A stretch of 64,000 nucleotides of DNA from Candidatus Obscuribacteraceae bacterium (GTDB lineage Bacteria > Cyanobacteriota > Vampirovibrionia > Obscuribacterales > Obscuribacteraceae), in contig JBGAHS010000004.1 in assembly GCA_044226015.1 (NCBI GenBank), positions 704,001-768,000 of the forward strand. Direction: 5' to 3'. A program made the translations under genes and the position numbers. Below, piece by piece: positions 10,180 to 21,923 of this stretch (the stretch's first letter is position 1; each line of letters begins with the position of its first letter). The notes beneath the pieces were generated by a model, which saw nothing but the letters and a program-made list of their open reading frames with translations, searched no databases and was not told the DNA's origin.

Positions 10180-10250
10180 AGGGGTGTCGCCAAGCGGTAA
10201 GGCAGCTGGTTCTGGTCCAGCCATCTGAGGTTCGAATCCTTGCACCCCTG
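10180..10250 (+). tRNA. tRNA-Gln (anticodon CTG), CCA not encoded
   Basis: Acceptor AGGGGTG/CACCCCT, D arm GCC-AAGCGGTAA-GGC, anticodon arm GCTGG-TTCTGGT-CCAGC, T loop TTCGAAT. Confidence 0.95.
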
Positions 10251-10308
10251 CTCTTTCATTAAAAACTAAACTTGTTAGGTCTGCCTTTGGCGCATTTTGA
10301 GGTGGAGT

Positions 10309-11742
10309 ATGTGGCTTAGACTGATTTTGACTATGGGCTTGCTGAGTTCCATGGGCATCTGTAACGCTCAATTGGCGCTTGGAAAGGAAGATCTATCGTT
10401 CTCCTCCTCTGCCAATGCTTCGTCTACAGGTGCCCCGACCGAAAATTCCCCGTCTGCAAATGCTTCGACTGCAAGTGCCCCGTCCGCAAATGCTTCGACT
10501 GCAAATGCCTCGGCTGCAAATGCCTCGGCTGCAAATGCTTCGACTGCAAGTGCCGCAACCTCTAGTGCTTCAACCCCCAGTGCAATGACTGCAAGTACCT
10601 CTACCGGGAGTGCTTCGACTACTGCTAGCCCGACTGTGCCGGCACCTGCTACAGGTGCTTCGACAGATGCGGTCTATCAGGATCTTCGCACCATGTGGGA
10701 CCATTGCAATAACATGAAATCAACCGCGCTTGATCTCTTGAATGAAGGACGGAATGCGCCTTCCAGGCAGAAATGGGTCGCATTCTATGTGTCGAGCGCG
10801 AAGGACGATCTAACAATTCTGAAAAACTCAGCCAAAGCACTGCTAATTCCCGATGCCTTGAAAGCTTCATTTGGCAGTGGATGGTCTGATGTGCAGGGCT
10901 CCATAGCAAAACTAGATGAGCTGATTCCTCGCTTGGATTCAGAAGCGAAGGGGCTAAAAACTCCAACAGACGACAAATATCCGCCTGTATTTTGGAAAAC
11001 ATCGAGCGAATTTTCTAAATGTGCTGACGACCTCGATAAGGCGCTCATCTCGATTTTCAATGCGTTAGACGCTTCAATTAGCAAAACAGGACCGTCTATT
11101 TCTTCGAGCAGCGTGCCGAACACAGACGGCAGTGAAAGCGACGCCACATTGCAAGGCAGCGCTAGGATGGTTGACGAGCAGGTCGGATTTAAGAAGGTTG
11201 GCGAAGCTTCTACAAAAATTAGCAAGGCTTGCTGGGGCTTGTTTGGCGAATTGGAACGGTGGAACTTGCTTTACGGCAAACCGCCAGCTGGTGGCATTCC
11301 TGATGGATTTTATGGTGGCGGTTTGTCCTCCTCAGAGATTCTTTCAGAGTATAAATACCTCCCACAGTTTACTTTCACAAACGCACCATATGTGATGCTG
11401 TATAGCTATCGCCTTCCTCCGCGCCAAAATATGTTGGCATATCATACCGGGCAAATCGGTAAGCTCTTGAATTTGATGGAATCAGAGCTAAATGACGTTC
11501 AGGTGCCGGCCGACCGACAAATGGCACTGGCTGGTCCGTGGGATCAAACTAAGAAGCTATTTTTGGATTGTCGTCAAAATTATCTCTCCCTTTTGAATCT
11601 GGTAAACAACACAACTGACGATCGTTTGTCAAAAAATATTCGTGAGGATCAGATCACCTTCGGGCAGCCTTTAATGGCTATCTATGGTGATATGGCAAAA
11701 ATGCGTGATTCGCTCAACGACATCAAGAAGATGATTCAGTGA
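10309..11742 (+). CDS. Secreted hypothetical protein: Ala/Ser-rich repeat linker followed by two related helical domains
   Basis: SD GAGGTGGAG before ATG 10309; signal ending CNA-Q; 15-bp repeats at ~10441-10560 encoding SANAS/ANAST. Confidence 0.75.
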   Translation: MWLRLILTMGLLSSMGICNAQLALGKEDLSFSSSANASSTGAPTENSPSANASTASAPSANASTANASAANASAANASTASAATSSASTPSAMTASTSTGSASTTASPTVPAPATGASTDAVYQDLRTMWDHCNNMKSTALDLLNEGRNAPSRQKWVAFYVSSAKDDLTILKNSAKALLIPDALKASFGSGWSDVQGSIAKLDELIPRLDSEAKGLKTPTDDKYPPVFWKTSSEFSKCADDLDKALISIFNALDASISKTGPSISSSSVPNTDGSESDATLQGSARMVDEQVGFKKVGEASTKISKACWGLFGELERWNLLYGKPPAGGIPDGFYGGGLSSSEILSEYKYLPQFTFTNAPYVMLYSYRLPPRQNMLAYHTGQIGKLLNLMESELNDVQVPADRQMALAGPWDQTKKLFLDCRQNYLSLLNLVNNTTDDRLSKNIREDQITFGQPLMAIYGDMAKMRDSLNDIKKMIQ

Positions 11743-12000
11743 GTTCTAATTTCTAGTTCTAATTTGCTTGTTGGGGCAAGAATCGAAAGTTGCACGCGCT
11801 AGTGAAAGCCAAATTTCTCAAATTTCGCGGAGGTTTATTGCCATCCGCGCTCACCACCTAAGGTTTTTCACTATTGCAAGCTGCATTGAGATTCCTTTGA
11901 TGGTCACCATGTTAGTGAGGAAGAGCATCATCCGTAAAATCCCCAATCTGCTGCATTAATCTTTGAGCGGAAATTTTCTTCTAGTGATAAACTGAAATTT

Positions 12001-12096
12001 CAACCCGCTTGTGGGACTTTGGAACGACTTCCGAACATACCTTGTTAAGTGTGAAATCCCGTCGTCCCGTTTACGCCCCAGGCTGGGTTGTCTTTT
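12001..12096 (+). ncRNA. Candidate structured RNA (rod with paired 5'/3' ends and a U tail) or structured leader of the vWA gene
   Basis: Manual pairing 12001-12015 with 12076-12090 (14 bp, two 1-nt bulges) and 12021-12028 with 12061-12068; followed by TCTTTT; possible promoter TTGAGC-N17-GATAAC at 11963-11991. Confidence 0.45.
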
Positions 12097-12109
12097 GGGG
12101 TGTTTTTTT

Positions 12110-13501
12110 ATGGACGTTTCACGCGAAGATTTGTGTTTGTTTTTGAATGCTTGCTCTGTAGCAACAGGACAGCGAGAGTTCTACAGCTCTGATTCAGAGC
12201 AGCAAGTTTCCCTGCGATTCTTGCATCAATACATTTGCGTGAATTATAGAATGCCCTATGCGCGCACTCTTGCTGCAGGCGTTAATCACTTCAATCAGTG
12301 CGAAATAATCTTGCAATTGCTTAAGTCTGGCAAAGACTGTAAGCCAGAAAATCGCGCTGAGGAAAGTGCCTTGATTACGGCATCCCTTGCCGCATTGCCT
12401 CCACAACGTGCTTGGAAATTGATCACTCGACTACAGAAAGAACGTGTTAACAATCGCCGCACTCGTCGTGTTATTCAAGGATTTATCGAGAATAGAAAAG
12501 ACCAATCGTTTGATGCTGTTAAATATCGCAGCAAGTTCAAAGCCGCTGTACAGCATAGTCATATGAAATTGCATGGCGAACTTCCGGTGTTCCTGTTTCA
12601 TGGAATAAAAAAGAGTTTTCAAACTCCATTGTTTGAATCATTTCGTGCTGCCCATTTCAGCAAGAAGCATGTTTATGAATTGCCGTACTCAATTGCCGAG
12701 GGCTTTGCCGCGAAGCATAAAATTGATCGCGAGGAGTTTTTGAAACTGATTGAACCAAGGCTCACCGAGCGCGAGAAATTGCGCTTGCAAGAAGCGTCTG
12801 ATGGTAAAGTCAAAATCAATCCTGTGAAATTAAGTTTGACTGAGCTGTGTGTTTATATACTTAGTCTGCCTCTTGATGAACGAAATCAAAGGCGGGAGGA
12901 ATTGAACTCATGGATCGATGCAGCAGTAGGAGTACTCTTGCAAAAGGCTGGGGAGTTTCCTCTCTCAGGAAAAGTGGCGGCAGTTCTCGATAATTCATAT
13001 TCTTCAAGCGGAAGTCGTGAGAAACAAGCCCGTCCCCTTGCAGTGGCTCTTGCGACTCATTTCGTACTTTCTAAAGTTTGTGACAAATATCGAGCCTTTT
13101 GGACCAGCAATATGGATGATGCTCTGTTGGTTTATCCACGTGGGCAGTCATATTTGACCGAGCGAATTCTCGATGCTTTGGACTGGGGCGCAGAAACTGT
13201 TATTTTAGTTTCTGACGGTTGCGAGAATGATGTTCCAAAAGCCGCTGAGATTTTATTGCGCGCTTACACCAAATCTGGTGGCAATGCGGGGCTAATACAT
13301 TTGAATCCTGTGTTCGACCCTGATTCATTTCAAGTCGCGTCCATTTTGCCGGATATGCCAGCGCTTGGACTGAGATCGGGTGAAGACTTAGCCACAACCC
13401 TAGCGTTTGGAAAATTCAGCAGTGGTAAATCAGATTTCGCTGAGCTGGAAAAATATTTGAAAAGGAGAGCAGATTCTCTTGTGAGGAATGTATATGCTTG
13501 A
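12110..13501 (+). CDS. Helical (TROVE/Ro60-like) protein with C-terminal vWA domain
   Basis: vWA MIDAS motifs VLDNSYSS and ILVSDG, HLNP; long basic helical N-region; TROVE assignment is from architecture and recall of the family; ATG 12110 preferred over GTG 12011. Confidence 0.6.
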   Translation: MDVSREDLCLFLNACSVATGQREFYSSDSEQQVSLRFLHQYICVNYRMPYARTLAAGVNHFNQCEIILQLLKSGKDCKPENRAEESALITASLAALPPQRAWKLITRLQKERVNNRRTRRVIQGFIENRKDQSFDAVKYRSKFKAAVQHSHMKLHGELPVFLFHGIKKSFQTPLFESFRAAHFSKKHVYELPYSIAEGFAAKHKIDREEFLKLIEPRLTEREKLRLQEASDGKVKINPVKLSLTELCVYILSLPLDERNQRREELNSWIDAAVGVLLQKAGEFPLSGKVAAVLDNSYSSSGSREKQARPLAVALATHFVLSKVCDKYRAFWTSNMDDALLVYPRGQSYLTERILDALDWGAETVILVSDGCENDVPKAAEILLRAYTKSGGNAGLIHLNPVFDPDSFQVASILPDMPALGLRSGEDLATTLAFGKFSSGKSDFAELEKYLKRRADSLVRNVYA

Positions 13502-14627
13502 AAAAGATTTCCTGACCCTACAAGGTTTGCGCGCTGCACCTTCGCAAGTTTGTGGCGCATTTCGCTTGGTGCCTTTGATTCGCGAAAACGTTTGTGATGA
13601 TGTACGCATCTATTCGGATAAGTATGAAGATGCGTGGTCGCGAGTTAAAGTTGATTCCAAATTCTCCTATTGGTCATTTATTCCGCATGGAATGCTTTTG
13701 TCTTGGGGTGAAGACGTTGCGAGCCCGGCTACTCTTGGCGCTCAAATGAGGAAGGCGACACCAGAGAAAACGACGACTAAATGGGGAACGGTGCAAACCT
13801 TCCACAAAATGGCTAAGAGTGTCGGTACAAATGCGCTTCGATTTTTGCCGCTGCATCTGAGTATGGAGTACTTCTTAGGGCTTTGTTTTGGCGGACCCAA
13901 AATACGCTGGCCGGAATATAGCTCTTATGTGAAACGCTATGGCTTGGGTTTCCGGATTGAATTTGTTGCTGATGGACGCAGTCTTTATAAATTTGACGAG
14001 GCGCTTAGACAATTTGAAATTCATGAAGGGCAAGTAGGTGTCTTGATTTATACCGCCGAAGAGCTTGCCAGTGCCTTTGTGGTGCCGACGCCCGGTGATT
14101 ATCGTCGTATGCATGATAGTCTCATTATGGATTTCTATGGGCAACTGATCTATCAGTACGCGATTTTGTTTTCTGCTCAAAAGCTAAACGCTGTTATTAA
14201 TGTGGACAGCGCCAAATCTGTGAATGATTTGCGCTCTGCTTTGATGGCTGCGCGTGCTGAGTGGGCAGAGTTCAGTACAAAGTGTATGGCGGAGCATCTT
14301 GTTGGTAGAGAAATTCAGGTTCAGCCAGTTTTTGAACCTCCGGGACTTCGGCTTCAAAGGTTTATGACTGAGTTAGATCTGAATAGAACCAACACTATAG
14401 GCGAGCGCTTGCTGCGTGAGGATGGTGAAGTTCTTTACCTTAAGACTTATCGGCTGGATGCTGATCAGGCTAAGCGCGCCTGGTGGCTGCAAAATCTCGC
14501 GGCTAACGATTGGCATTTGCAGCAAACTGCGACCGCGCTGCGAATGACATTGCGAGACCTTGTCTGCGGACTGGAAGCTTCGGGGTTTGCTTATCTCTTA
14601 AGTGACCCCCAACAACTAAAGAAATAA
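13488..14627 (+). CDS. ARPP-2-like domain protein with C-terminal Fis-like HTH
   Basis: L.GLRAAPSQV.G.FRLVPL, RFLPLHLSME, ALRQFEIHEGQVG, YLKTYRL, WHLQQTATAL HTH; overlaps the upstream stop codon (translational coupling); family name from recall. Confidence 0.6.
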   Translation: MYMLEKDFLTLQGLRAAPSQVCGAFRLVPLIRENVCDDVRIYSDKYEDAWSRVKVDSKFSYWSFIPHGMLLSWGEDVASPATLGAQMRKATPEKTTTKWGTVQTFHKMAKSVGTNALRFLPLHLSMEYFLGLCFGGPKIRWPEYSSYVKRYGLGFRIEFVADGRSLYKFDEALRQFEIHEGQVGVLIYTAEELASAFVVPTPGDYRRMHDSLIMDFYGQLIYQYAILFSAQKLNAVINVDSAKSVNDLRSALMAARAEWAEFSTKCMAEHLVGREIQVQPVFEPPGLRLQRFMTELDLNRTNTIGERLLREDGEVLYLKTYRLDADQAKRAWWLQNLAANDWHLQQTATALRMTLRDLVCGLEASGFAYLLSDPQQLKK

Positions 14628-14643: not shown

Positions 14644-15069
14644 CGGTTGAGTTCCAAGGTTTTTCTGCGCCAGCAGGCGAGGGAAGATTTTCACGGAAAC
14701 TGAAACGGTACCGTTTGAGTTCCAAGGTTTTTCTGTGCTAGCAGGGGGAGGGAAGATTTTCACGGAAACTGAAGCGGTACCGTTTGAGTTCCAAGGTTTT
14801 TCTGCGCCAGCAGGGGGAGGGAAGATTTTCACGGAAACTGAAGCGGTACCGTTTCAGTTCCAAGGTTTTTCTGCGCCAGCAGGGGGAGGGAAGATTTTCA
14901 CGGAAACTGAAACGGTACCGTTTGAGTTCCAAGGTTTTTCTGCGCCAGCAGGGGGAGGGAAGATTTTCACGGAAACTGAAGCGGTACCGTTTGAGTTCCA
15001 AGGTTTTTCTGCGCCAGCAGGGGGAGGGAAGATTTTCACGGAAACTGAAACGGTACCGTTTGAGTTCCA
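14644..15069. repeat. Tandem array, about 6.1 copies of a 69-bp unit containing the palindrome AACTGAA[A/G]CGGTACCGTTT[G/C]AGTT
   Basis: GGTACC at 14707, 14776, 14845, 14914, 14983, 15052 (period 69); units near-identical, no spacers. Confidence 0.97.
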
Positions 15070-15288: not shown

Positions 15289-15517
15289 TACTAGTACTGA
15301 AACAACTTATACAAACCGCATCGCAAGCCGCCTGACACAAGTCTAGTTCGCTTCATTTTGATTCGCCAAGTTTGCCGAGAATGTCTGAAATTCTTCAGAC
15401 TTGTTTTGAGCTGCCTTCGAATCACCCTAATCGGAAAAGCTCTGGAGTAACACCAGGGTAGTTGACGTGCGCAAGTTATCAGTCATCAAATTCGATACCA
15501 CCAGAGAGGAAAGAGTG

Positions 15518-16429
15518 ATGAGTATGCAAGCAAGAGTTGAAGCCCTGAAGCAGCAGCTTGAGAATCTCTTTCCTGGCAAATGGTTTAGTGAACAGAAACG
15601 CAACCGTAATATAAATACGGGACTTGTTGAAATTGATAATGGTATCACTCGTGGTATCGCTCGAAAGAAGATAACGGAGTGGAACGGACCTGTTTCGTCA
15701 GGTAAGACAACTCTTCTACGCAATGCAATTATCAATTGGTGCGCTCAAGGACTGAATGTGGCTTACATTGATTGCGAGGGAAAGCTTTACCCCGCTGACT
15801 GGTCCGGTATCGGTAGCACTGCTTCAATCGGTAAAGAAAACCTTTCCTTTGTAGACGTTAACTTTCAGAAAGGCAAATTTTGGATTGTTCGTCCTTCTGA
15901 AGAAGAGGCTGCTCCCACCGACGTGATTCCTCTTGTATCGAAGAAAAATGTCCTGGTTCAAGAGGCAATCTGGAGCGCTGATCAATTTATCCGCAGTAAT
16001 GCATTCGATATTGTAATTCTTGATTTGGGGCAAAACGATCTTTCAAAGCGCAATAAGCTTGGAATGGGTTATCTCTCTGTTCCTAGTCGTATCTATGCTC
16101 GCTTTCAACGTGCGCTAGATAAGTCGAAAGCTGCTTTCATTGTTGTCGCTGACACCGAATCTGTAATTGTTGATGAGCAAGATGCTGAAGTGAATCAAAA
16201 GCAATCCCAAAACAATTGGGGCTGTCATGCTCGCTTTCTATTCAATCGTGGACTCGCTGTTCGCTGCGAAAGCAGCTTAAAGGGTGTCGCCATGATTACA
16301 CCAACCGTAAAACTGAGCGCATGGCGCGATGGACAATCACAAGAAGTGGAGGTTAACCTTGGTTCTGCCGTGCCGAATCGCTTGTTTACGCATTCCGCGG
16401 TTCCAGATCGTCGCACATCAAAAGGCTGA
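15518..16429 (+). CDS. imuA: ImuA/RecA-like mutasome protein
   Basis: NTGLVEID...GI...ITEWNGPVSSGKTT, VAYID, FDIVILD; first gene before imuB and dnaE2; start after SD GAGAGGA. Confidence 0.8.
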   Translation: MSMQARVEALKQQLENLFPGKWFSEQKRNRNINTGLVEIDNGITRGIARKKITEWNGPVSSGKTTLLRNAIINWCAQGLNVAYIDCEGKLYPADWSGIGSTASIGKENLSFVDVNFQKGKFWIVRPSEEEAAPTDVIPLVSKKNVLVQEAIWSADQFIRSNAFDIVILDLGQNDLSKRNKLGMGYLSVPSRIYARFQRALDKSKAAFIVVADTESVIVDEQDAEVNQKQSQNNWGCHARFLFNRGLAVRCESSLKGVAMITPTVKLSAWRDGQSQEVEVNLGSAVPNRLFTHSAVPDRRTSKG

Positions 16430-18101
16430 TCCGGAGCTTAAAGCAAAACCACTAGCCCTGCTATCTTCAAACAATAGTCGAGCTAAAGTCTTGCTTTGTT
16501 CAAATGAAGCTGCTTTGCAGCGTGTTTATCCAGGAATGAGACTCTCTGAAGCAAGGGCAGTTTGTGCAGATCTGCTCTGGCGTGAGTATGACAGTGATCT
16601 CTATATGAAACTGCAAACTCGACTAATACAAGAATTAGTTCATGCCTCACCACAGGTTAGCAGTATTGATACAGGGATTCTTCTGTTGGATGCAAGCGGA
16701 CTCAATCACTTAGGAGGTGAACGTAAGTTCTGTCGACAGGTACAAAGAATAGCTAATACCTTCGGCTTTTATGACATACATATTGGACTTGCTGATAGCG
16801 CATTTGCTGCTCAAATTGCCAGTAAGTTCAAACATAGCAGGCACTATATTGTTCCCCATCGCAAAGATAAGGAGTTTATTTCCGAGCTCTCAATTCAACA
16901 TTTGCCAGTATCTGATGATACAAAAGAAACTTTTATTAGATTAGGTGTGAAAACCATCGGGCAGCTTTTGCAGATTCCCGTAAATGAGGTTCAAGAACGA
17001 TTCGGCAAAGAAGGACTTTTAGCTGTTGATCTAGCAGGAGGAATTGATAAAACGCAACCGCAAGTAGTGCTGACAAAGGAGGTTTATGAGGCATCAGTTG
17101 ATCTGAATTTTCCTGTCGAATCGCTCTCACAAACACAGTTCATTCTTAAATCCATACTGGAAAGGATTTGTTCAAAACTAAAAAGCAATTATCTGTTAGC
17201 CGAAGAATTACAGATTTCGTTTTTCAATGATAATGACAAGTTTGATATTCGCCCCCTAAAGCTATTGCGACCTTCCAACAATCCCAAATTTTTGCTTGAA
17301 CTAATCAGGCTGTCTCTGGAAGCCCTTCCTCTAGCTCGTGAATATACAGGCTTGCAGATCGAAGTAAGCAAATTATGTAATGAAGACTGGCAGCAAAATA
17401 AAATAAGTATTCTGACTGATAAGCCAGAACTTTTGCCTGAGGCAGATGAATCACCGTCTGCCTCAAGGCAAATCAAAATCTTGTCTATTACAACTGTTTC
17501 TGACTCAGGGAGTAAAAAACATGCGACAACAAGCTTTGTTGCCGAAAACAAAAATAACGACGCTCAAGCGGAACCGTTCGCGCTTTTGCTTCAGCGATTC
17601 ATTACAAGAATGGGCACAAAGTCTGTTGTTCGTCCTGTCCCTAACGATCAGCATATTCCAGACATGGCTTCACGTTTTTTACCTCTTACTGAGGAAGCAG
17701 GGGCCGTTCTTCCGATCAACTTTTCCAGCAGTGCGGAAGCTGGCTGTGCAACGCTTGCGTGCGGACTTGTTCTAAAAAAAGCCCGAAGTACCGAACCTCT
17801 CCTTGTTGAGTACCAGGGGAAAGTGCCTCGTTCTATAAGCTACCTTGGGCGCTGGTTTCGAATTAAAGAGCTAACCCAGCCAGAACGTTTGTCAGGTTTA
17901 TGGTGGGAGAATCCGGTCAGGAAATCATATTATGTTGCATTGCTTGAATCTATAAGTGAGGATAAGTCGTCTGCTCGAGATAACAGGCTTAGCTCACGCT
18001 TTTTGAAGCAACGCAAGCAATTCGTTGAGCAAAATTATCTGGTTTTGCTTGTACACAATCATGAAACTAACGCATGGGAACTCGATGGATTCTTCGATTA
18101 A
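16359..18101 (+). CDS. imuB: ImuB, catalytically inactive Y-family polymerase
   Basis: AALQRVYPGMRLSEARA, LGVKTIGQL, C-terminal PERLSGLWW..RKSYY..W.L.G.FD; lacks the catalytic acidic motifs; TTG 16359 follows GGAGG. Confidence 0.85.
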   Translation: MVLPCRIACLRIPRFQIVAHQKADPELKAKPLALLSSNNSRAKVLLCSNEAALQRVYPGMRLSEARAVCADLLWREYDSDLYMKLQTRLIQELVHASPQVSSIDTGILLLDASGLNHLGGERKFCRQVQRIANTFGFYDIHIGLADSAFAAQIASKFKHSRHYIVPHRKDKEFISELSIQHLPVSDDTKETFIRLGVKTIGQLLQIPVNEVQERFGKEGLLAVDLAGGIDKTQPQVVLTKEVYEASVDLNFPVESLSQTQFILKSILERICSKLKSNYLLAEELQISFFNDNDKFDIRPLKLLRPSNNPKFLLELIRLSLEALPLAREYTGLQIEVSKLCNEDWQQNKISILTDKPELLPEADESPSASRQIKILSITTVSDSGSKKHATTSFVAENKNNDAQAEPFALLLQRFITRMGTKSVVRPVPNDQHIPDMASRFLPLTEEAGAVLPINFSSSAEAGCATLACGLVLKKARSTEPLLVEYQGKVPRSISYLGRWFRIKELTQPERLSGLWWENPVRKSYYVALLESISEDKSSARDNRLSSRFLKQRKQFVEQNYLVLLVHNHETNAWELDGFFD

Positions 18102-21100
18102 GTGGATTATGCAGAACTACATTGTCACTCAGCTTTTTCTCTTCTCGATGGTGCCTCAAACCCGGAAGAGTTAGTTGAACGCGCAAAAAATATCGGACTA
18201 TCTGCTCTCGCTCTAACTGACCACGATGATTTAGGAGGTGCTATACGCTTTGCTCAAGCGGCTAAGGAATTAGATCTTCCCGGTATTATAGGTGCGGAAC
18301 TCACTCTCACTGGAGATGAGCACGTCATCACTCTTGCCAAATCGCTTGAGGGCTACAAAAACATTTGTCGCCTGATCACTTTCGCACGAATGAATTGTGA
18401 AAGAGGACTTCCCCGTATAAACCTGGAGCTTTTAGCAGAGCATTCAAAAGGCATGATTGTGCTATCAGGATGCCCTCATGGAAAGATCCCAAAGCTAATA
18501 GCTCAAGGAGCAGTTGAAGAAGCCTTTTCTACGTGCAAGTACTTTCTCGAAATTTTCAAGGAGGATTTTTATTTAGAACTCTGGGACCACGATATAGCTC
18601 AGGAAGCCATAATTTGCAGGCATCTGTATGAGTTTGCTCAGAAATTAAAGATACCGTGGGTGGTGACAAATAATGTTCATTATGCTTATCCGGAGAAAAG
18701 GATTATTCATGATGTGCTTACTTGCCTTCGTCATGAAGTTACATTGAGTACTGCTGGACGGCGCTTGCGTCCTAACGGTAGCTGGTACTTGAAGTCACCG
18801 AAGGAAATGCTGGCTCAATGGCAGCATCATCCCGAAGGTCTATACAACACCCTCGTTGTGGCAGAGCGATGTGAGTTCAGGCTGGGGCTTCTAAAGCCCG
18901 AACTCCCTCAAATTGATTTGAGTAGAGCACAGGCATTTTTGGATAATCATAGTTTTTTCCGCCGAACCGGGGTCCCTTCCACCAGGGGACCCCACCCCGT
19001 TTTGTCAGTGACTGAATCAGATTTATGTAGCATTGCAGATCCTACTGAAACAGAGCTTGCTGGCAATATTGCTAAGCCTGCTAATCCTGCTAAGCGAGAA
19101 TACGCTGTCTCGAGAAGTGATGGTGATGCCGTTGCAAGAGAGATAGCTGTATCAAGCTATGAGTCCCCCTCTACAGAGGAGTCGGCTGGCGCCAGCAAAA
19201 ATGCGAATACAGCGTCAATCTCACTCACTATATATGAGGAAACTGCCGCTGAAGATTCAAATGTAGCGGCTGCGATAACTTCAGAGTGTCTACTGCAAAC
19301 GGATCCCCCTGTGAATCCTCTCTCCACCTTTTCCCAACACGTTTTTTCCTCACAGCGTTCCCAACAAATGTATGAACTGTTAGAGAATCTTACCTGGCTG
19401 GGAGCTGTTGAACGCTACAACAAGAATTTTGGCGAAAAGCAAATCAATCAACTGAAACATGAACTTGATTTGATTCGGCGATTGGAGCTTGCTCCCTATT
19501 TCTTGATTATGTGGGATATTATTTGTTTTGCAAATTCACAGGGCATCGCTGTTCAAGGACGCGGCTCTGCTGCTAATTCTGCTGTTTGTTATTGTTTGAA
19601 AATAACAGCTGTTGATCCTATTGCAATGGATCTCTTGTTTGAGCGATTCATTTCGGAAGATCGAAACGAGCCTCCGGATATTGATCTTGATATTGCCCAT
19701 CAAGAGCGCGAGAAGGTCCTGCAATATGTTTACGCGAAATATGGGCGCAACCATGCGGCAATGGTTTGTGAGCACATCACATATCGTGGCGCATCTGCCG
19801 TGCGTGACGCTGCTCGCATTTTTGACTTCTCTCCTGAGCAAGCCGATAAATTGTCTACTCAGGCGCAGCATATGGAAGCAAAGTCTGCTGCAGAGGCTCT
19901 GGCAACAGGCGGCGCCGCGCGTGCCGGACTCGACCCACGAGATCGTCGCGTGCAACTTTTGATTCAAGTTGTCGCAGGTTTGCATCAGCTGCCTCGTCAT
20001 CGTGGTATCCATGTCGGCGGCTTTGTTTTGGCTGGAGAAAATATTGGTTCTGTGGTTCCAGTAGAACCTGCTTCGATGCCAGGACGAACCGTCATTCAGT
20101 GGGATAAGGATGATCTTGATTATGCAGGATTGATCAAAATTGATTTGCTCGGTTTGGGCATGCTTATGATGATTCAAGAGAGTGTCAAGCTAATAAAGAA
20201 ACATCGTAATTTTGATTTGGATTTGTCTCAGCTTGATATGACTGATCAAAACATTTATCAAATGATGCAAAAGGCTGACACCATCGGTGTCTTTCAGGTA
20301 GAGTCGCGTGCGCAGATGAGTATTCTTCCTAAGATTCGGCCGAAGTGCTTTTACGATATTGTTGTATCAATTGCTATCGTGCGACCGGGTCCAATTCAGG
20401 GCAATATTGTGCATCCCTATCTGCGGCGAAGGCGTGGCATTGAACCGGTGACATATCTGCACCACACAATCGAACCCATTCTTAGAAGAACATACGGTGT
20501 ACCACTCTTTCAAGAACAAGGTATGAAACTAGCCGTGGTGGCAGCGGGATTTACTCCTTCACAGGCTGATCAGCTTAGACGGGTGATGAGCCATAAACGC
20601 TCGCTTGAGCGAATGATGGCAATTTGTGTGGATCTTGCTTCTGGAATGCGAAAGAATGGTCTATCTGAAGAAGCAATCGAAACGATAACTTTTCAATTGC
20701 GCGCATTTGCAAACTATGGATTTCCGGAGAGCCATGCTGCTTCTTTTGCATTGTTGGTTTTTGCATCTGCCTACATCAAATATTATTATGCTTCAGAGTT
20801 TTATTGCGCCATTTTGAACGCTCAACCCATGGGGTTCTATAGTCCTGCAACATTGATAAGAGATGCCATTCGGCATGGTGTTGAGGTGCGTCCTATTGAT
20901 CTTGCACACAGCGTTTGGGACTGTACATTAGAGGAAGCTAGCGCGGACTTCGCTTCACAGGCTGAGCCGTATGATGTGAATGTAGATGAGGCGGGTAATA
21001 TCACTTTTGTCAAAGGTTCTGCGAAGTCTAAAGCTTCGAAAAGCCGCCAGGATGGCGGCGTTCCCACGTGTGATAGGGTTGGCGAATCTGGGGTTGCCGA

Positions 21101-21923
21101 ATCTGGGAGCGCCAAATCTGGTAGCGCCGAATCTGGTAGTACCGACTTCCAGCCGGCTTCGTCACCGCCGGCTTTGCGCATTGGCTTACGGTATGTTTCC
21201 GGTTTGGGACCAGGTGCCAAGCAATTGCTTGAAAATGCGTGGGCAACAGGCGGTCCATTTACAAGCATAGAAGATGTTTGTAAGCGCAGCGGTTTGCGTG
21301 TTAAAGACCTAGAGCGTTTGGCAATGGCTGGTGCATTTGATAGCTTTTGTAACGGTAGACGGCAGGCACTTTGGCGAGTTCTCAAACAGGCTCGTACACG
21401 TCGTGAAATGCCTTTGCTCAAATTACTTCAAGAACGAACAAGAGCTAAGAATATGCAGAACGATTCGTTGGAAAAAGAGCCCTTCTTGCCTGCTATGACA
21501 GATTTGGAAACGACAATCGCTGATTACAATATTATGGGGCTCTCGACGGGCCATCATCCCATGGTCTTTTTCCGTAAATGGGCAGATAGCAACCATTACT
21601 TCACTTGCGCAGGATTAAGCTCCAGAAAAAATGGCGAGATGCTGACTGTTGCTGGTAGTGTGATTTGCCGTCAGCGTCCGCACACCGCCAAGGGATTCGT
21701 TTTTATCACTTTGGAAGACGAAACTGGTACCAGCAATGTGATTATTCGTCCTCAAGTTTTCGATGAGTTCAAAGACGTAATTTTGACGCAAAATTTTATA
21801 GCTGTATCAGGTCGTTTGCAATTAGAAGAAGGAGTGGTTAATTTGATTTGCACTTCCGTCAAAGCACTGCCCCGTCTTGCTGCTGCTGACGAAATTCCGA
21901 TTGAATCTCGTGACTTTCACTGA
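18102..21923 (+). CDS. dnaE2: Error-prone DNA polymerase III alpha subunit DnaE2 (ImuC)
   Basis: PHP YAELHCHSAFSLLDG, GRGSAANS, PDIDLD, YGFPESHA, NAQPMGFY, OB fold, C-terminal SRDFH signature. Confidence 0.95.
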   Translation: MDYAELHCHSAFSLLDGASNPEELVERAKNIGLSALALTDHDDLGGAIRFAQAAKELDLPGIIGAELTLTGDEHVITLAKSLEGYKNICRLITFARMNCERGLPRINLELLAEHSKGMIVLSGCPHGKIPKLIAQGAVEEAFSTCKYFLEIFKEDFYLELWDHDIAQEAIICRHLYEFAQKLKIPWVVTNNVHYAYPEKRIIHDVLTCLRHEVTLSTAGRRLRPNGSWYLKSPKEMLAQWQHHPEGLYNTLVVAERCEFRLGLLKPELPQIDLSRAQAFLDNHSFFRRTGVPSTRGPHPVLSVTESDLCSIADPTETELAGNIAKPANPAKREYAVSRSDGDAVAREIAVSSYESPSTEESAGASKNANTASISLTIYEETAAEDSNVAAAITSECLLQTDPPVNPLSTFSQHVFSSQRSQQMYELLENLTWLGAVERYNKNFGEKQINQLKHELDLIRRLELAPYFLIMWDIICFANSQGIAVQGRGSAANSAVCYCLKITAVDPIAMDLLFERFISEDRNEPPDIDLDIAHQEREKVLQYVYAKYGRNHAAMVCEHITYRGASAVRDAARIFDFSPEQADKLSTQAQHMEAKSAAEALATGGAARAGLDPRDRRVQLLIQVVAGLHQLPRHRGIHVGGFVLAGENIGSVVPVEPASMPGRTVIQWDKDDLDYAGLIKIDLLGLGMLMMIQESVKLIKKHRNFDLDLSQLDMTDQNIYQMMQKADTIGVFQVESRAQMSILPKIRPKCFYDIVVSIAIVRPGPIQGNIVHPYLRRRRGIEPVTYLHHTIEPILRRTYGVPLFQEQGMKLAVVAAGFTPSQADQLRRVMSHKRSLERMMAICVDLASGMRKNGLSEEAIETITFQLRAFANYGFPESHAASFALLVFASAYIKYYYASEFYCAILNAQPMGFYSPATLIRDAIRHGVEVRPIDLAHSVWDCTLEEASADFASQAEPYDVNVDEAGNITFVKGSAKSKASKSRQDGGVPTCDRVGESGVAESGSAKSGSAESGSTDFQPASSPPALRIGLRYVSGLGPGAKQLLENAWATGGPFTSIEDVCKRSGLRVKDLERLAMAGAFDSFCNGRRQALWRVLKQARTRREMPLLKLLQERTRAKNMQNDSLEKEPFLPAMTDLETTIADYNIMGLSTGHHPMVFFRKWADSNHYFTCAGLSSRKNGEMLTVAGSVICRQRPHTAKGFVFITLEDETGTSNVIIRPQVFDEFKDVILTQNFIAVSGRLQLEEGVVNLICTSVKALPRLAAADEIPIESRDFH

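Follow-up and report, generated by a model that had tools for sequence, protein, structure and literature searches.

The question raised by the locus described here is whether an RNA of about 90 nucleotides (nt) and the two genes that follow it form a ribonucleoprotein system of the Ro60/Y RNA type. The locus lies in a window of 64,000 nt from Candidatus Obscuribacteraceae bacterium (contig JBGAHS010000004.1 of assembly GCA_044226015.1, positions 704,001-768,000, forward strand), and coordinates given below without a locus name are those of this window. It comprises, all on the + strand, a structured RNA (12001-12090), a gene for a 463-amino-acid (aa) protein (12110-13501) and a gene for a 379-aa ARPP-2 protein with a C-terminal helix-turn-helix (HTH) of the Fis/NtrC type (13488-14627). 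The original prediction, made from the sequence alone, had seen here a divergent Ro-like protein with its own uncatalogued RNA partner, with an implied tie to an SOS mutasome. The first part is supported by a predicted Ro60 fold, a covarying RNA structure and the absence of the RNA from Rfam, while the tie to the mutasome found no support. The feature is real and widespread, and the three parts may together constitute one Ro60/Y-type particle in which an anticodon-like loop serves as bait and damage to tRNA anticodons is thereby signalled to the HTH regulator, a reading that is held tentatively and at somewhat less than an even chance.

With regard to the 463-aa protein, the AlphaFold2 model (predicted local distance difference test score, pLDDT, 86) consists of a helical repeat region that extends to about residue 280 and is followed by a vWA domain. 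The 11 best Foldseek rows were all Ro60 or Rsr structures (E 1e-5 to 2e-4). With VIA-align, the Ro60 of phage phiLo (9l5y) matched over 398 residues within the model range 2-458 (Z 16.9, root-mean-square deviation (rmsd) 5.1 Å), and the Xenopus Ro60 (1yvp, Z 15.9) and the Deinococcus Rsr (2nvo, Z 12.9) matched over about 400 residues from residue 2-5 onwards with rmsd of 5-6 Å; structures made up of a vWA domain only ranked lower (Z <=10.4). The N-terminal region, for which a TROVE-like fold had been anticipated, thus falls within the full-length Ro60 match by both methods. Furthermore, the language-model neighbours of the protein include TROVE clusters at 0.93. The MIDAS (metal ion-dependent adhesion site) is intact, as had been noted, and reads D294-x-S296-x-S298...S347...D369; D294, S296, S298 and D369 are invariant in 121 sequences, and position 347 is occupied by T in 90 of them and by S in the other 31. 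In the same sequences a basic patch (R100, NNRR114-117, R119, KYR138-140 and H149) is invariant or nearly so, and residues 96-190 contain 21 K/R against 7 D/E. Because the structural matches run over the full length and are joined by the MIDAS and the conserved basic patch, the protein is predicted to have a Ro60 fold, and it stands outside the Pfam TROVE family: neither the protein, which lacks a Pfam match of any kind, nor any of 41 distant homologues matches PF05731, and NCBIfam returned only a sub-threshold row for it. A canonical TROVE gene was not found in the genome of the window (92% complete) by a search that does detect one in D. radiodurans, used as the control.

At least 1216 homologues of the Ro-like protein were counted, and its profile detects 721 clusters formed at 50% identity. 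Identities of 41-55% are kept across phyla. Two laboratory strains, Myxococcus xanthus DK1622 and Nostoc sp. PCC 7120, have named homologues, and the copy in the same genus is only 49% identical and sits among other genes. Four Nostoc plasmids carry the gene. Among viral contigs, no relative was confirmed in 19 pattern matches, and 50,697 phage records gave one distant match. Since the closest homologue has 463 aa and covers the query fully from the ATG at 12110, this codon is likely to be the start of the gene; for the same reason a GTG at 12011, whose frame would run through the RNA, was rejected. The open reading frames of the Ro-like protein and the ARPP-2 protein overlap at 13488-13501, in agreement with the coupling of the two genes 3' of the RNA that had been proposed.

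Folding of the RNA reproduced the rod that had been drawn by hand. The 14-bp terminal stem is bulged at single positions, 12012 and 12084. It is followed by an inner stem (12021-12028), which contains one A-C mismatch, and by an apical hairpin, and TCTTTT forms the tail. From base to tip, the RNA can be described as a terminal stem, a bulged pyrimidine (12012), a 3-bp G-C helix, an internal loop, an 8-bp upper stem, a bulge with the motif UUCCGAA (12029-12035) and an apical hairpin (12036-12053). Its folding z is -2.9, and 1/200 shuffles was equally stable. In the minimum-energy fold the apical loop of the window copy comprises 8 nt (12041-12048), one base above the usual 7 nt of the family, whereas the hand-drawn version has 7 nt and bulges out a C; the triplet GUU occupies 12044-12046. 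Rfam 15 gave no match over the rod at gathering thresholds and nothing meaningful at relaxed ones, so that the RNA family is new to that collection. In the whole genome the RNA is present as a single copy (E 2e-12 with the family model R1, whose training included the window copy). The promoter that had been placed directly 5' was recovered as an extended -10-like element, TG-A-TAAACT at 11985-11993 (+ strand), the predicted promoter of the RNA and the operon; a consensus scanner, which needs a -35 box, did not list it.

The family was defined from 80 genome loci of cyanobacteria, myxobacteria, actinobacteria, Armatimonadota, planctomycetes and Bdellovibrionales, from which 89 RNA copies were aligned to build model R1. 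Three helices are supported, with 89.9% of cells paired in the 89 copies compared with 75.7% after shuffling. Changes on both sides of a pair occur at 19/25 pairs, and the covariation score of 0.50 exceeds those of shuffled (0.23) and slid (<=0.16) controls, which leave relatedness in. Over this alignment and that of a metagenome set, helix 1 is paired in 94-95% of cells and shows compensatory changes at 8-9 of 12 pairs. In the metagenome set, aligned by fitting to R1, both-side changes were seen at 21/25 pairs with a score of 0.54. The covarying structure upstream of homologues that would be expected of a genuine RNA is therefore present in both sets.

Model R1 finds the RNA upstream of the gene in 77/80 genome loci, which are its training set, and in 77/80 metagenome loci outside it, where one match is truncated at a contig end; some of the metagenome copies are identical to training copies, and 68 are distinct and new. 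The three genome loci without a match are one with 307 nt upstream, one whose gene is matched only from residue 42, and L040, and the three metagenome loci without a match all have less than 100 nt upstream. In the family of the window organism, the RNA occurs in 3/61 genomes, each time directly before the gene. Across 32 genomes of one myxobacterial genus, protein and RNA are each present in 28 and the same four lack both. A phylum sample contained the gene in 18/151 genomes, and the RNA was present in 16 of the 18 new loci searched; it is estimated that about 1100 stretches of a species-level genome collection match the pattern. The RNA always lies on the sense strand and upstream, with a median gap to the gene of 59 nt (77 loci). 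Two tandem copies are found in 15/77 loci and three copies in two metagenome loci. A TAnnnT hexamer ends 12-17 nt before the invariant G of the RNA in 50/75 distinct first copies; five control windows taken farther upstream gave 2-12 of 75.

The likeness to Y RNAs can be judged by architecture and by the Ro-binding motif. Y RNAs are 80-130 nt in length and combine a long stem of the 5' and 3' ends with a large internal loop; in those of bacteria, GNCGAA is situated close to the 5' end (PMC4201824). The RNAs of phage phiLo, which lie in tandem upstream of the gene, were chosen by a CGAA motif in an internal bulge (PMC12135203). In the family RNA an internal bulge at about nt 29-35 contains UUCCG(AA), and the UUCCGAA of the window copy is the likely counterpart of the GNCGAA or CGAA Ro-binding motif. 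TCCG is present in 90/92 training and 67/68 held-out copies, and CCGAA, which corresponds to the weaker criterion of CGAA in a bulge used for phiLo, in 54/92 and 49/68. The motif GGUCCGA is absent from the window RNA, as had been stated from the outset; its DNA form GGTCCGA occurs in 2/68 held-out copies, as part of the upper stem. A bulged pyrimidine is kept in 59/62 non-redundant copies.

The tip of the RNA resembles an anticodon loop. The register of the loop was set by the pairing of its stem and not by the loop sequence; a free search for the best hairpin chose other hairpins in many copies, and the search was hence restricted in position (offsets 7-11 or 6-12). Rows were dropped if they lacked an anchor or had fewer than 3 closing pairs (4/92 training copies, 1/68 held-out copies and 4/62 non-redundant copies less than 75% alike). 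The 7-nt loop has a pyrimidine at position 32, U33, a purine at 37 and mostly A38, similarly to the 72 tRNAs of the genome itself. The combination Y32-U33-R37 was found in 62/88 training, 51/67 held-out and 37/58 non-redundant loops, and was weaker in the phylum set (10/16). In 2000 shuffles of the non-redundant loops its mean count was 5.8 and its maximum 16. U35 is present in 72/88, 51/67 and 37/58 loops and in 17/72 tRNAs. The stem of the loop covaries at 4/5 positions, its outer pair being mostly unpaired, and five loop positions are kept while the stem varies freely. The commonest triplets are GUU, UUG, CUG, GUG, GUA and AUG, and tandem copies mostly differ in the triplet. Decoding, or mimicry specific to an amino acid, was rejected as a general rule because the triplet varies and includes some that are not those of tRNAs. 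YUNR is an antisense-type loop motif, and a loop of this kind does not fit, position 35 being mostly U and not a purine. In the simplest view, the loop would be a handle, or a bait, offered to proteins recognising anticodon loops.

A tRNA-like module is also found in YrlA, which mimics the D arm, the T arm and the acceptor stem and whose effector is given as unknown (10.1101/312249); the anticodon nuclease of Salmonella does not cut YrlA (PMC7790460). In both the RNA described here and YrlA (Chen et al. 2014; Wang et al. 2018 preprint), a distal module resembling part of a tRNA is attached to a Ro-binding stem, which is putative in the former. Unlike YrlA, the present RNA has no D or T stem-loops, contains one anticodon-like stem-loop with a variable triplet and has no Rfam match. 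It appears to mimic the part of tRNA complementary to that imitated by YrlA. The RNA is Y-like by architecture and place, and since neither the Y RNA motif nor the features of YrlA were found in it, it is filed under neither class.

The second protein is assigned to ARPP-2 by Pfam PF22549 (E 1.3e-96, 323 bits against a cut-off of 27). In its model (pLDDT 91), only the C-terminal 45-60 residues find structural matches, which are NtrC/Fis DNA-binding domains (Z 4.6-5.2), and the consensus of 120 homologues retains the HTH. The two lines agree with the earlier recognition of an ARPP-2-like protein with a Fis-type HTH, and the HTH points to a transcriptional output. The ARPP-2 core had no clear match in the Protein Data Bank, which does not by itself show a new fold. 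Many polar residues of the protein are invariant, among them Q20 and Q182. The invariant cysteine of ARPP proteins is absent, the best cysteine column reaching 57/120. ARPP-2 follows the Ro-like gene in 77/80 genome loci and 71/80 metagenome loci; of the 9 metagenome loci without it, 8 end within 434 nt.

Prediction of a complex between the Ro-like and ARPP-2 proteins gave a score of 0.63, compared with 0.00 for the best of 3 controls; the mark for this score is reached by 116/157 solved complexes and 2/215 mismatched pairs, figures that hold only roughly for the present alignments. The runs agree in >=98% of contacts, with a partner pLDDT >=85. The predicted interface lies on the vWA domain and includes the MIDAS residues 296-298 and the ARPP-2 residues 18, 20 and 177, which are invariant in 120 sequences, so ARPP-2 is predicted to dock on the metal-site face of the vWA domain. 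In integrins, acidic residues of the ligand complete the metal site. ARPP-2 E177, which is outside the listed best contact pairs, may complete the site here. A natural fusion of the Ro-like and ARPP-2-HTH parts is represented by a single sequence of 828 aa (P0283). Longer fused forms were not found among 7993 word-index candidates, which counts as weak evidence.

Taken as a whole, the module is closest to the known Ro60/Rsr systems with Y RNAs, such as Rsr-Yrn1 of D. radiodurans, rsr-yrlBA-rtcBA of Salmonella and Ro60-Yrl1/Yrl2 of Thermus phage phiLo. It shares with them the helical ring and vWA/MIDAS architecture, which is here predicted, and an adjacent RNA of 80-130 nt with a 5'/3' closing stem and a CGAA-type motif in a bulge, present in one to three copies beside the gene, on the same strand and within a few kb. 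It differs from them in the lack of a Pfam TROVE match, in its motif, UUCCGAA and not GGUCCGA or GNCGAA, and in having a dedicated ARPP-2-HTH partner that is predicted to dock on the vWA metal site. Moreover, rtcB, rtcA and rtcR are not linked to it among its recurrent neighbours; RtcB genes are present elsewhere in 5/5 genomes tested, and none is at the position of the module. The RNA repair operon controlled by RtcR (Hughes et al. 2020, PMC7790460) likewise has a regulator with a Fis-type HTH beside a Ro60 gene and Y RNAs, and there the signal is a tRNA cleaved in the anticodon, which is the analogy behind the sentinel step proposed below. However, RtcR is a CARF-AAA+ activator of sigma-54, whereas in the module it is ARPP-2 to which the HTH is fused, and neither an AAA+ nor a CARF domain was found. 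The ARPP systems of Iyer et al. 2022 (PMC9503650) have the ARPP-family domain in common with the module, and vWA genes are listed in their ARG neighbourhoods; they differ from it in their ARG, HIRAN, WYL and deacetylase neighbours, in the lack of TROVE and RNA in the available part of that source, and in an absolutely conserved cysteine and glutamine, of which the former is not invariant in the module.

Expression was followed in three RNA-seq runs from one study (standard paired libraries) at L095, a cyanobacterial locus with two RNA copies. The reads are almost all in one orientation, consistent with the + strand, and the RNA is transcribed in sense at this locus, whereas a 90-nt species is beyond what standard libraries can show. 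The transcript begins near 680 and spans an upstream gene of 122 aa and RNA copy 1 at a depth of about 130-360. Copy 1 forms the 3' part of a longer sense transcript (depth about 150-250), at copy 2 the depth falls to about 10-20, and over the Ro-like gene it is mostly 6-110; dispersed repeats confound the stretches just after each RNA copy. Base mismatches at a 2% share were not seen inside the RNA copies, the reads coming from long transcripts.

These results suggest a course of events whose steps differ in firmness. The three parts travel together, the structure of the RNA covaries and its tip keeps the profile of an anticodon loop. The Ro60 fold and the docking of ARPP-2 on the metal-site face of the vWA domain are model predictions. 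The ring would probably bind the RNA at the bulged stem and the UUCCGAA bulge, through the conserved basic patch at about residues 100-151. The loop might then, with a likelihood near even, be presented to proteins that recognise anticodon loops of tRNAs with U35. More doubtfully, by analogy with RtcR, cleavage or binding of the loop could alter the contact between ring, vWA domain and ARPP-2 and lead to action of the HTH on DNA. A still more specific version, in which the module represents a separate Ro60 branch with a sentinel RNA of swappable triplet that is cut or bound instead of tRNA, the signal being relayed through the vWA metal site to ARPP-2-HTH, is conceivable and seems on balance unlikely.

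Several observations weigh against the particle with its bait loop. The canonical motif GNCGAA was found in 0/92 training, 0/68 held-out and 0/18 further copies (0/178 distinct, counted per alignment). The Ro60 match stands at 11-15% identity with rmsd of 5-11 Å, and two profiles gave no sequence link to solved Ro60 chains. Many of the training loci are Nostocales, and related loci are not independent. As for the loop, 21/58 non-redundant copies miss Y32-U33-R37, and the triplets include AUG, AUA, UUA, CUA and UCA, mostly not ordinary bacterial anticodons. The P0283 fusion may be a frameshift between overlapping genes, neither RtcB nor a nuclease gene was found among the recurrent neighbours scanned, and no pile-up of ends was seen at either RNA copy of L095, in libraries of a kind that lose 90-nt RNAs.

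The main rivals of the particle are a cis-acting leader and a machine that tethers polynucleotide phosphorylase (PNPase). The RNA could act in cis as an operator or attenuator of the operon, to which either the Ro-like protein or a host protein recognising anticodon loops would bind, and the thrS operator of E. coli is a precedent for leader control by an anticodon-loop-like element. Such a role would account for the constant sense orientation and short distance upstream of the gene, for an RNA start where the -10 box predicts it in 50/75 first copies, for the drop in depth between the two copies of L095 and the low depth over most of its Ro-like gene, and for the failure to find the RNA away from the gene in the whole genomes searched. 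It is, however, unlikely, as the place of the RNA is not fixed: a 407-aa WD40 gene separates it from the gene in L004 and a 122-aa gene does so in L027 and L044, while in most of its 23 loci the 122-aa gene lies upstream of the RNA. The double and triple copies, the double ones mostly with different triplets, fit such control poorly, and the closed rod ends before the ribosome-binding region. A position 5' of the Ro60 gene is, moreover, shared by proven or tested Y-like RNAs (PMC4201824, PMC12135203). The PNPase alternative supposes a RYPER-like decay or repair machine. In it, PNPase or another ribonuclease would be tethered to the ring by the RNA, and ARPP-2 would be an enzyme acting on the ends of RNA or on ribose adducts, both the HTH and the resemblance to an anticodon being incidental. 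PNPase tethering has been shown for Yrn1 (PMC4201824) and reported for YrlA and the phage Yrl RNAs (10.1101/312249, PMC12135203), ARPP has been proposed to act on ribose moieties (PMC9503650), and ARPP-2 is rich in invariant polar residues. Nevertheless, the cysteine that underlies the ribose proposal is not invariant in ARPP-2 and three of its invariant residues are in the predicted vWA interface; the preservation of the HTH, the constancy of the five loop positions over a freely varying stem and the absence of a ribonuclease gene among the recurrent neighbours scanned would also be unexplained by it, and its probability appears to be as low as that of the leader.

A link to the SOS response or to phage defence is the least probable of the readings. 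In this case the module would work with the adjacent imuABC mutasome, or the RNA would be a tRNA decoy against phage nucleases. The window does contain imuA-, imuB- and dnaE2-like genes downstream of the module (15467-21923, named from RecA-like, IMS and polymerase III alpha matches), as had been pointed out, and canonical Rsr operons respond to DNA damage (PMC7790460); the plasmid-borne copies in Nostoc and a NACHT/EAD4 gene head-to-head with the module in 16 cyanobacterial loci might be expected of defence genes. The functional tie is nevertheless unsupported: imuA/imuB/dnaE2 matches are absent from loci L001-L198 (flanks up to 6 kb) and from 17 kb around the copy of the same-genus genome, on which grounds the mutasome was rejected as a partner, and on gene-neighbourhood grounds its link to the module is local only. 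The PADLOC defence library gave no match, and presence in 28/32 genomes of one genus and 41-55% identity across phyla are unlike defence genes with a fast turnover.

A description of this module was not found in the literature searches made; Burroughs and Aravind 2016 or the 2020 review by Sim and colleagues may mention the clade. Six supplementary files of a Nostoc small-RNA survey (PMC4734099) contain neither the motifs nor the locus tags, the latter having been guessed and possibly wrong, and the main text of a 2026 cyanobacterial RNA-structure screen contains none of the terms looked for, while its supplement may list the RNA (PMC12873609). The role of the Ro60 metal site has been called unclear (PMC12135203). 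In the module, a Ro60-like ring is accompanied by a genetically fixed RNA as well as by a fixed partner whose predicted position is on the metal site, so that the role of that site and the question of the YrlA effector both become testable. The module also adds an RNA family absent from Rfam 15 that would mimic the part of tRNA left out by YrlA. If the sentinel reading were true, ARPP-2 would be the first dedicated protein ligand of the Ro60 MIDAS and the module an RNA-gated one-component regulator.

More distant relatives of the module were also encountered. On an Alkaliphilus plasmid (NZ_CP058558.1), an RNA-like element of about 180 nt (L200:2295-2473) lies upstream of a distant Ro-like gene (25% identity), which is followed by an ARPP-1-like gene. 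The element has the common scaffold, with terminal stem, 3-bp helix, an upper stem ending in GAU and UUCCGA, and a long and different distal part (z -4.6), and it matches neither model R1 nor Rfam; this one case suggests a modular family with exchangeable distal domains. In a sister clade (L087:730-3231; L201:2929-5540), a distant Ro-like vWA protein is followed by a gene of about 350 aa, which is ARPP-1 by Pfam in L087 and similar by eye in L201, a 462-kb phage record; R1 gave no match in either locus.

With regard to neighbouring genes, two recur besides ARPP-2, both in cyanobacteria. The 122-aa gene mentioned above has no Pfam match and recurs in 23 cyanobacterial loci (e.g. L043:3166-3534, L095:690-1058), at a position that varies between upstream of the RNA and between the RNA and the Ro-like gene. 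The gene found head-to-head with the module in 16 cyanobacterial loci is divergently transcribed and has an EAD4-NACHT-HEAT-NCC-H architecture (e.g. L044:2310-5234). In the window, the dnaE2-like polymerase gene encodes 1273 aa with two low-complexity insertions. Between the ARPP-2 gene and the imuA/imuB/dnaE2-like genes, a 69-bp unit is repeated in six tandem copies (14647-15069, 96% matches). Because related arrays and single copies are present on at least 4 contigs of the genome, the unit is a dispersed repeat family and lies outside the module. Upstream, a 15-bp tandem repeat (10409-10554) encodes an Ala/Ser/Asn-rich linker in the 481-aa gene that precedes the module, and a tRNA-Gln(CUG) gene at 10180-10251, 1.8 kb upstream of the module, is the only Rfam match in the whole window. 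Of the 72 predicted tRNA genes of the genome, many encode a second and divergent isoacceptor, possibly a sign of a tRNA array.

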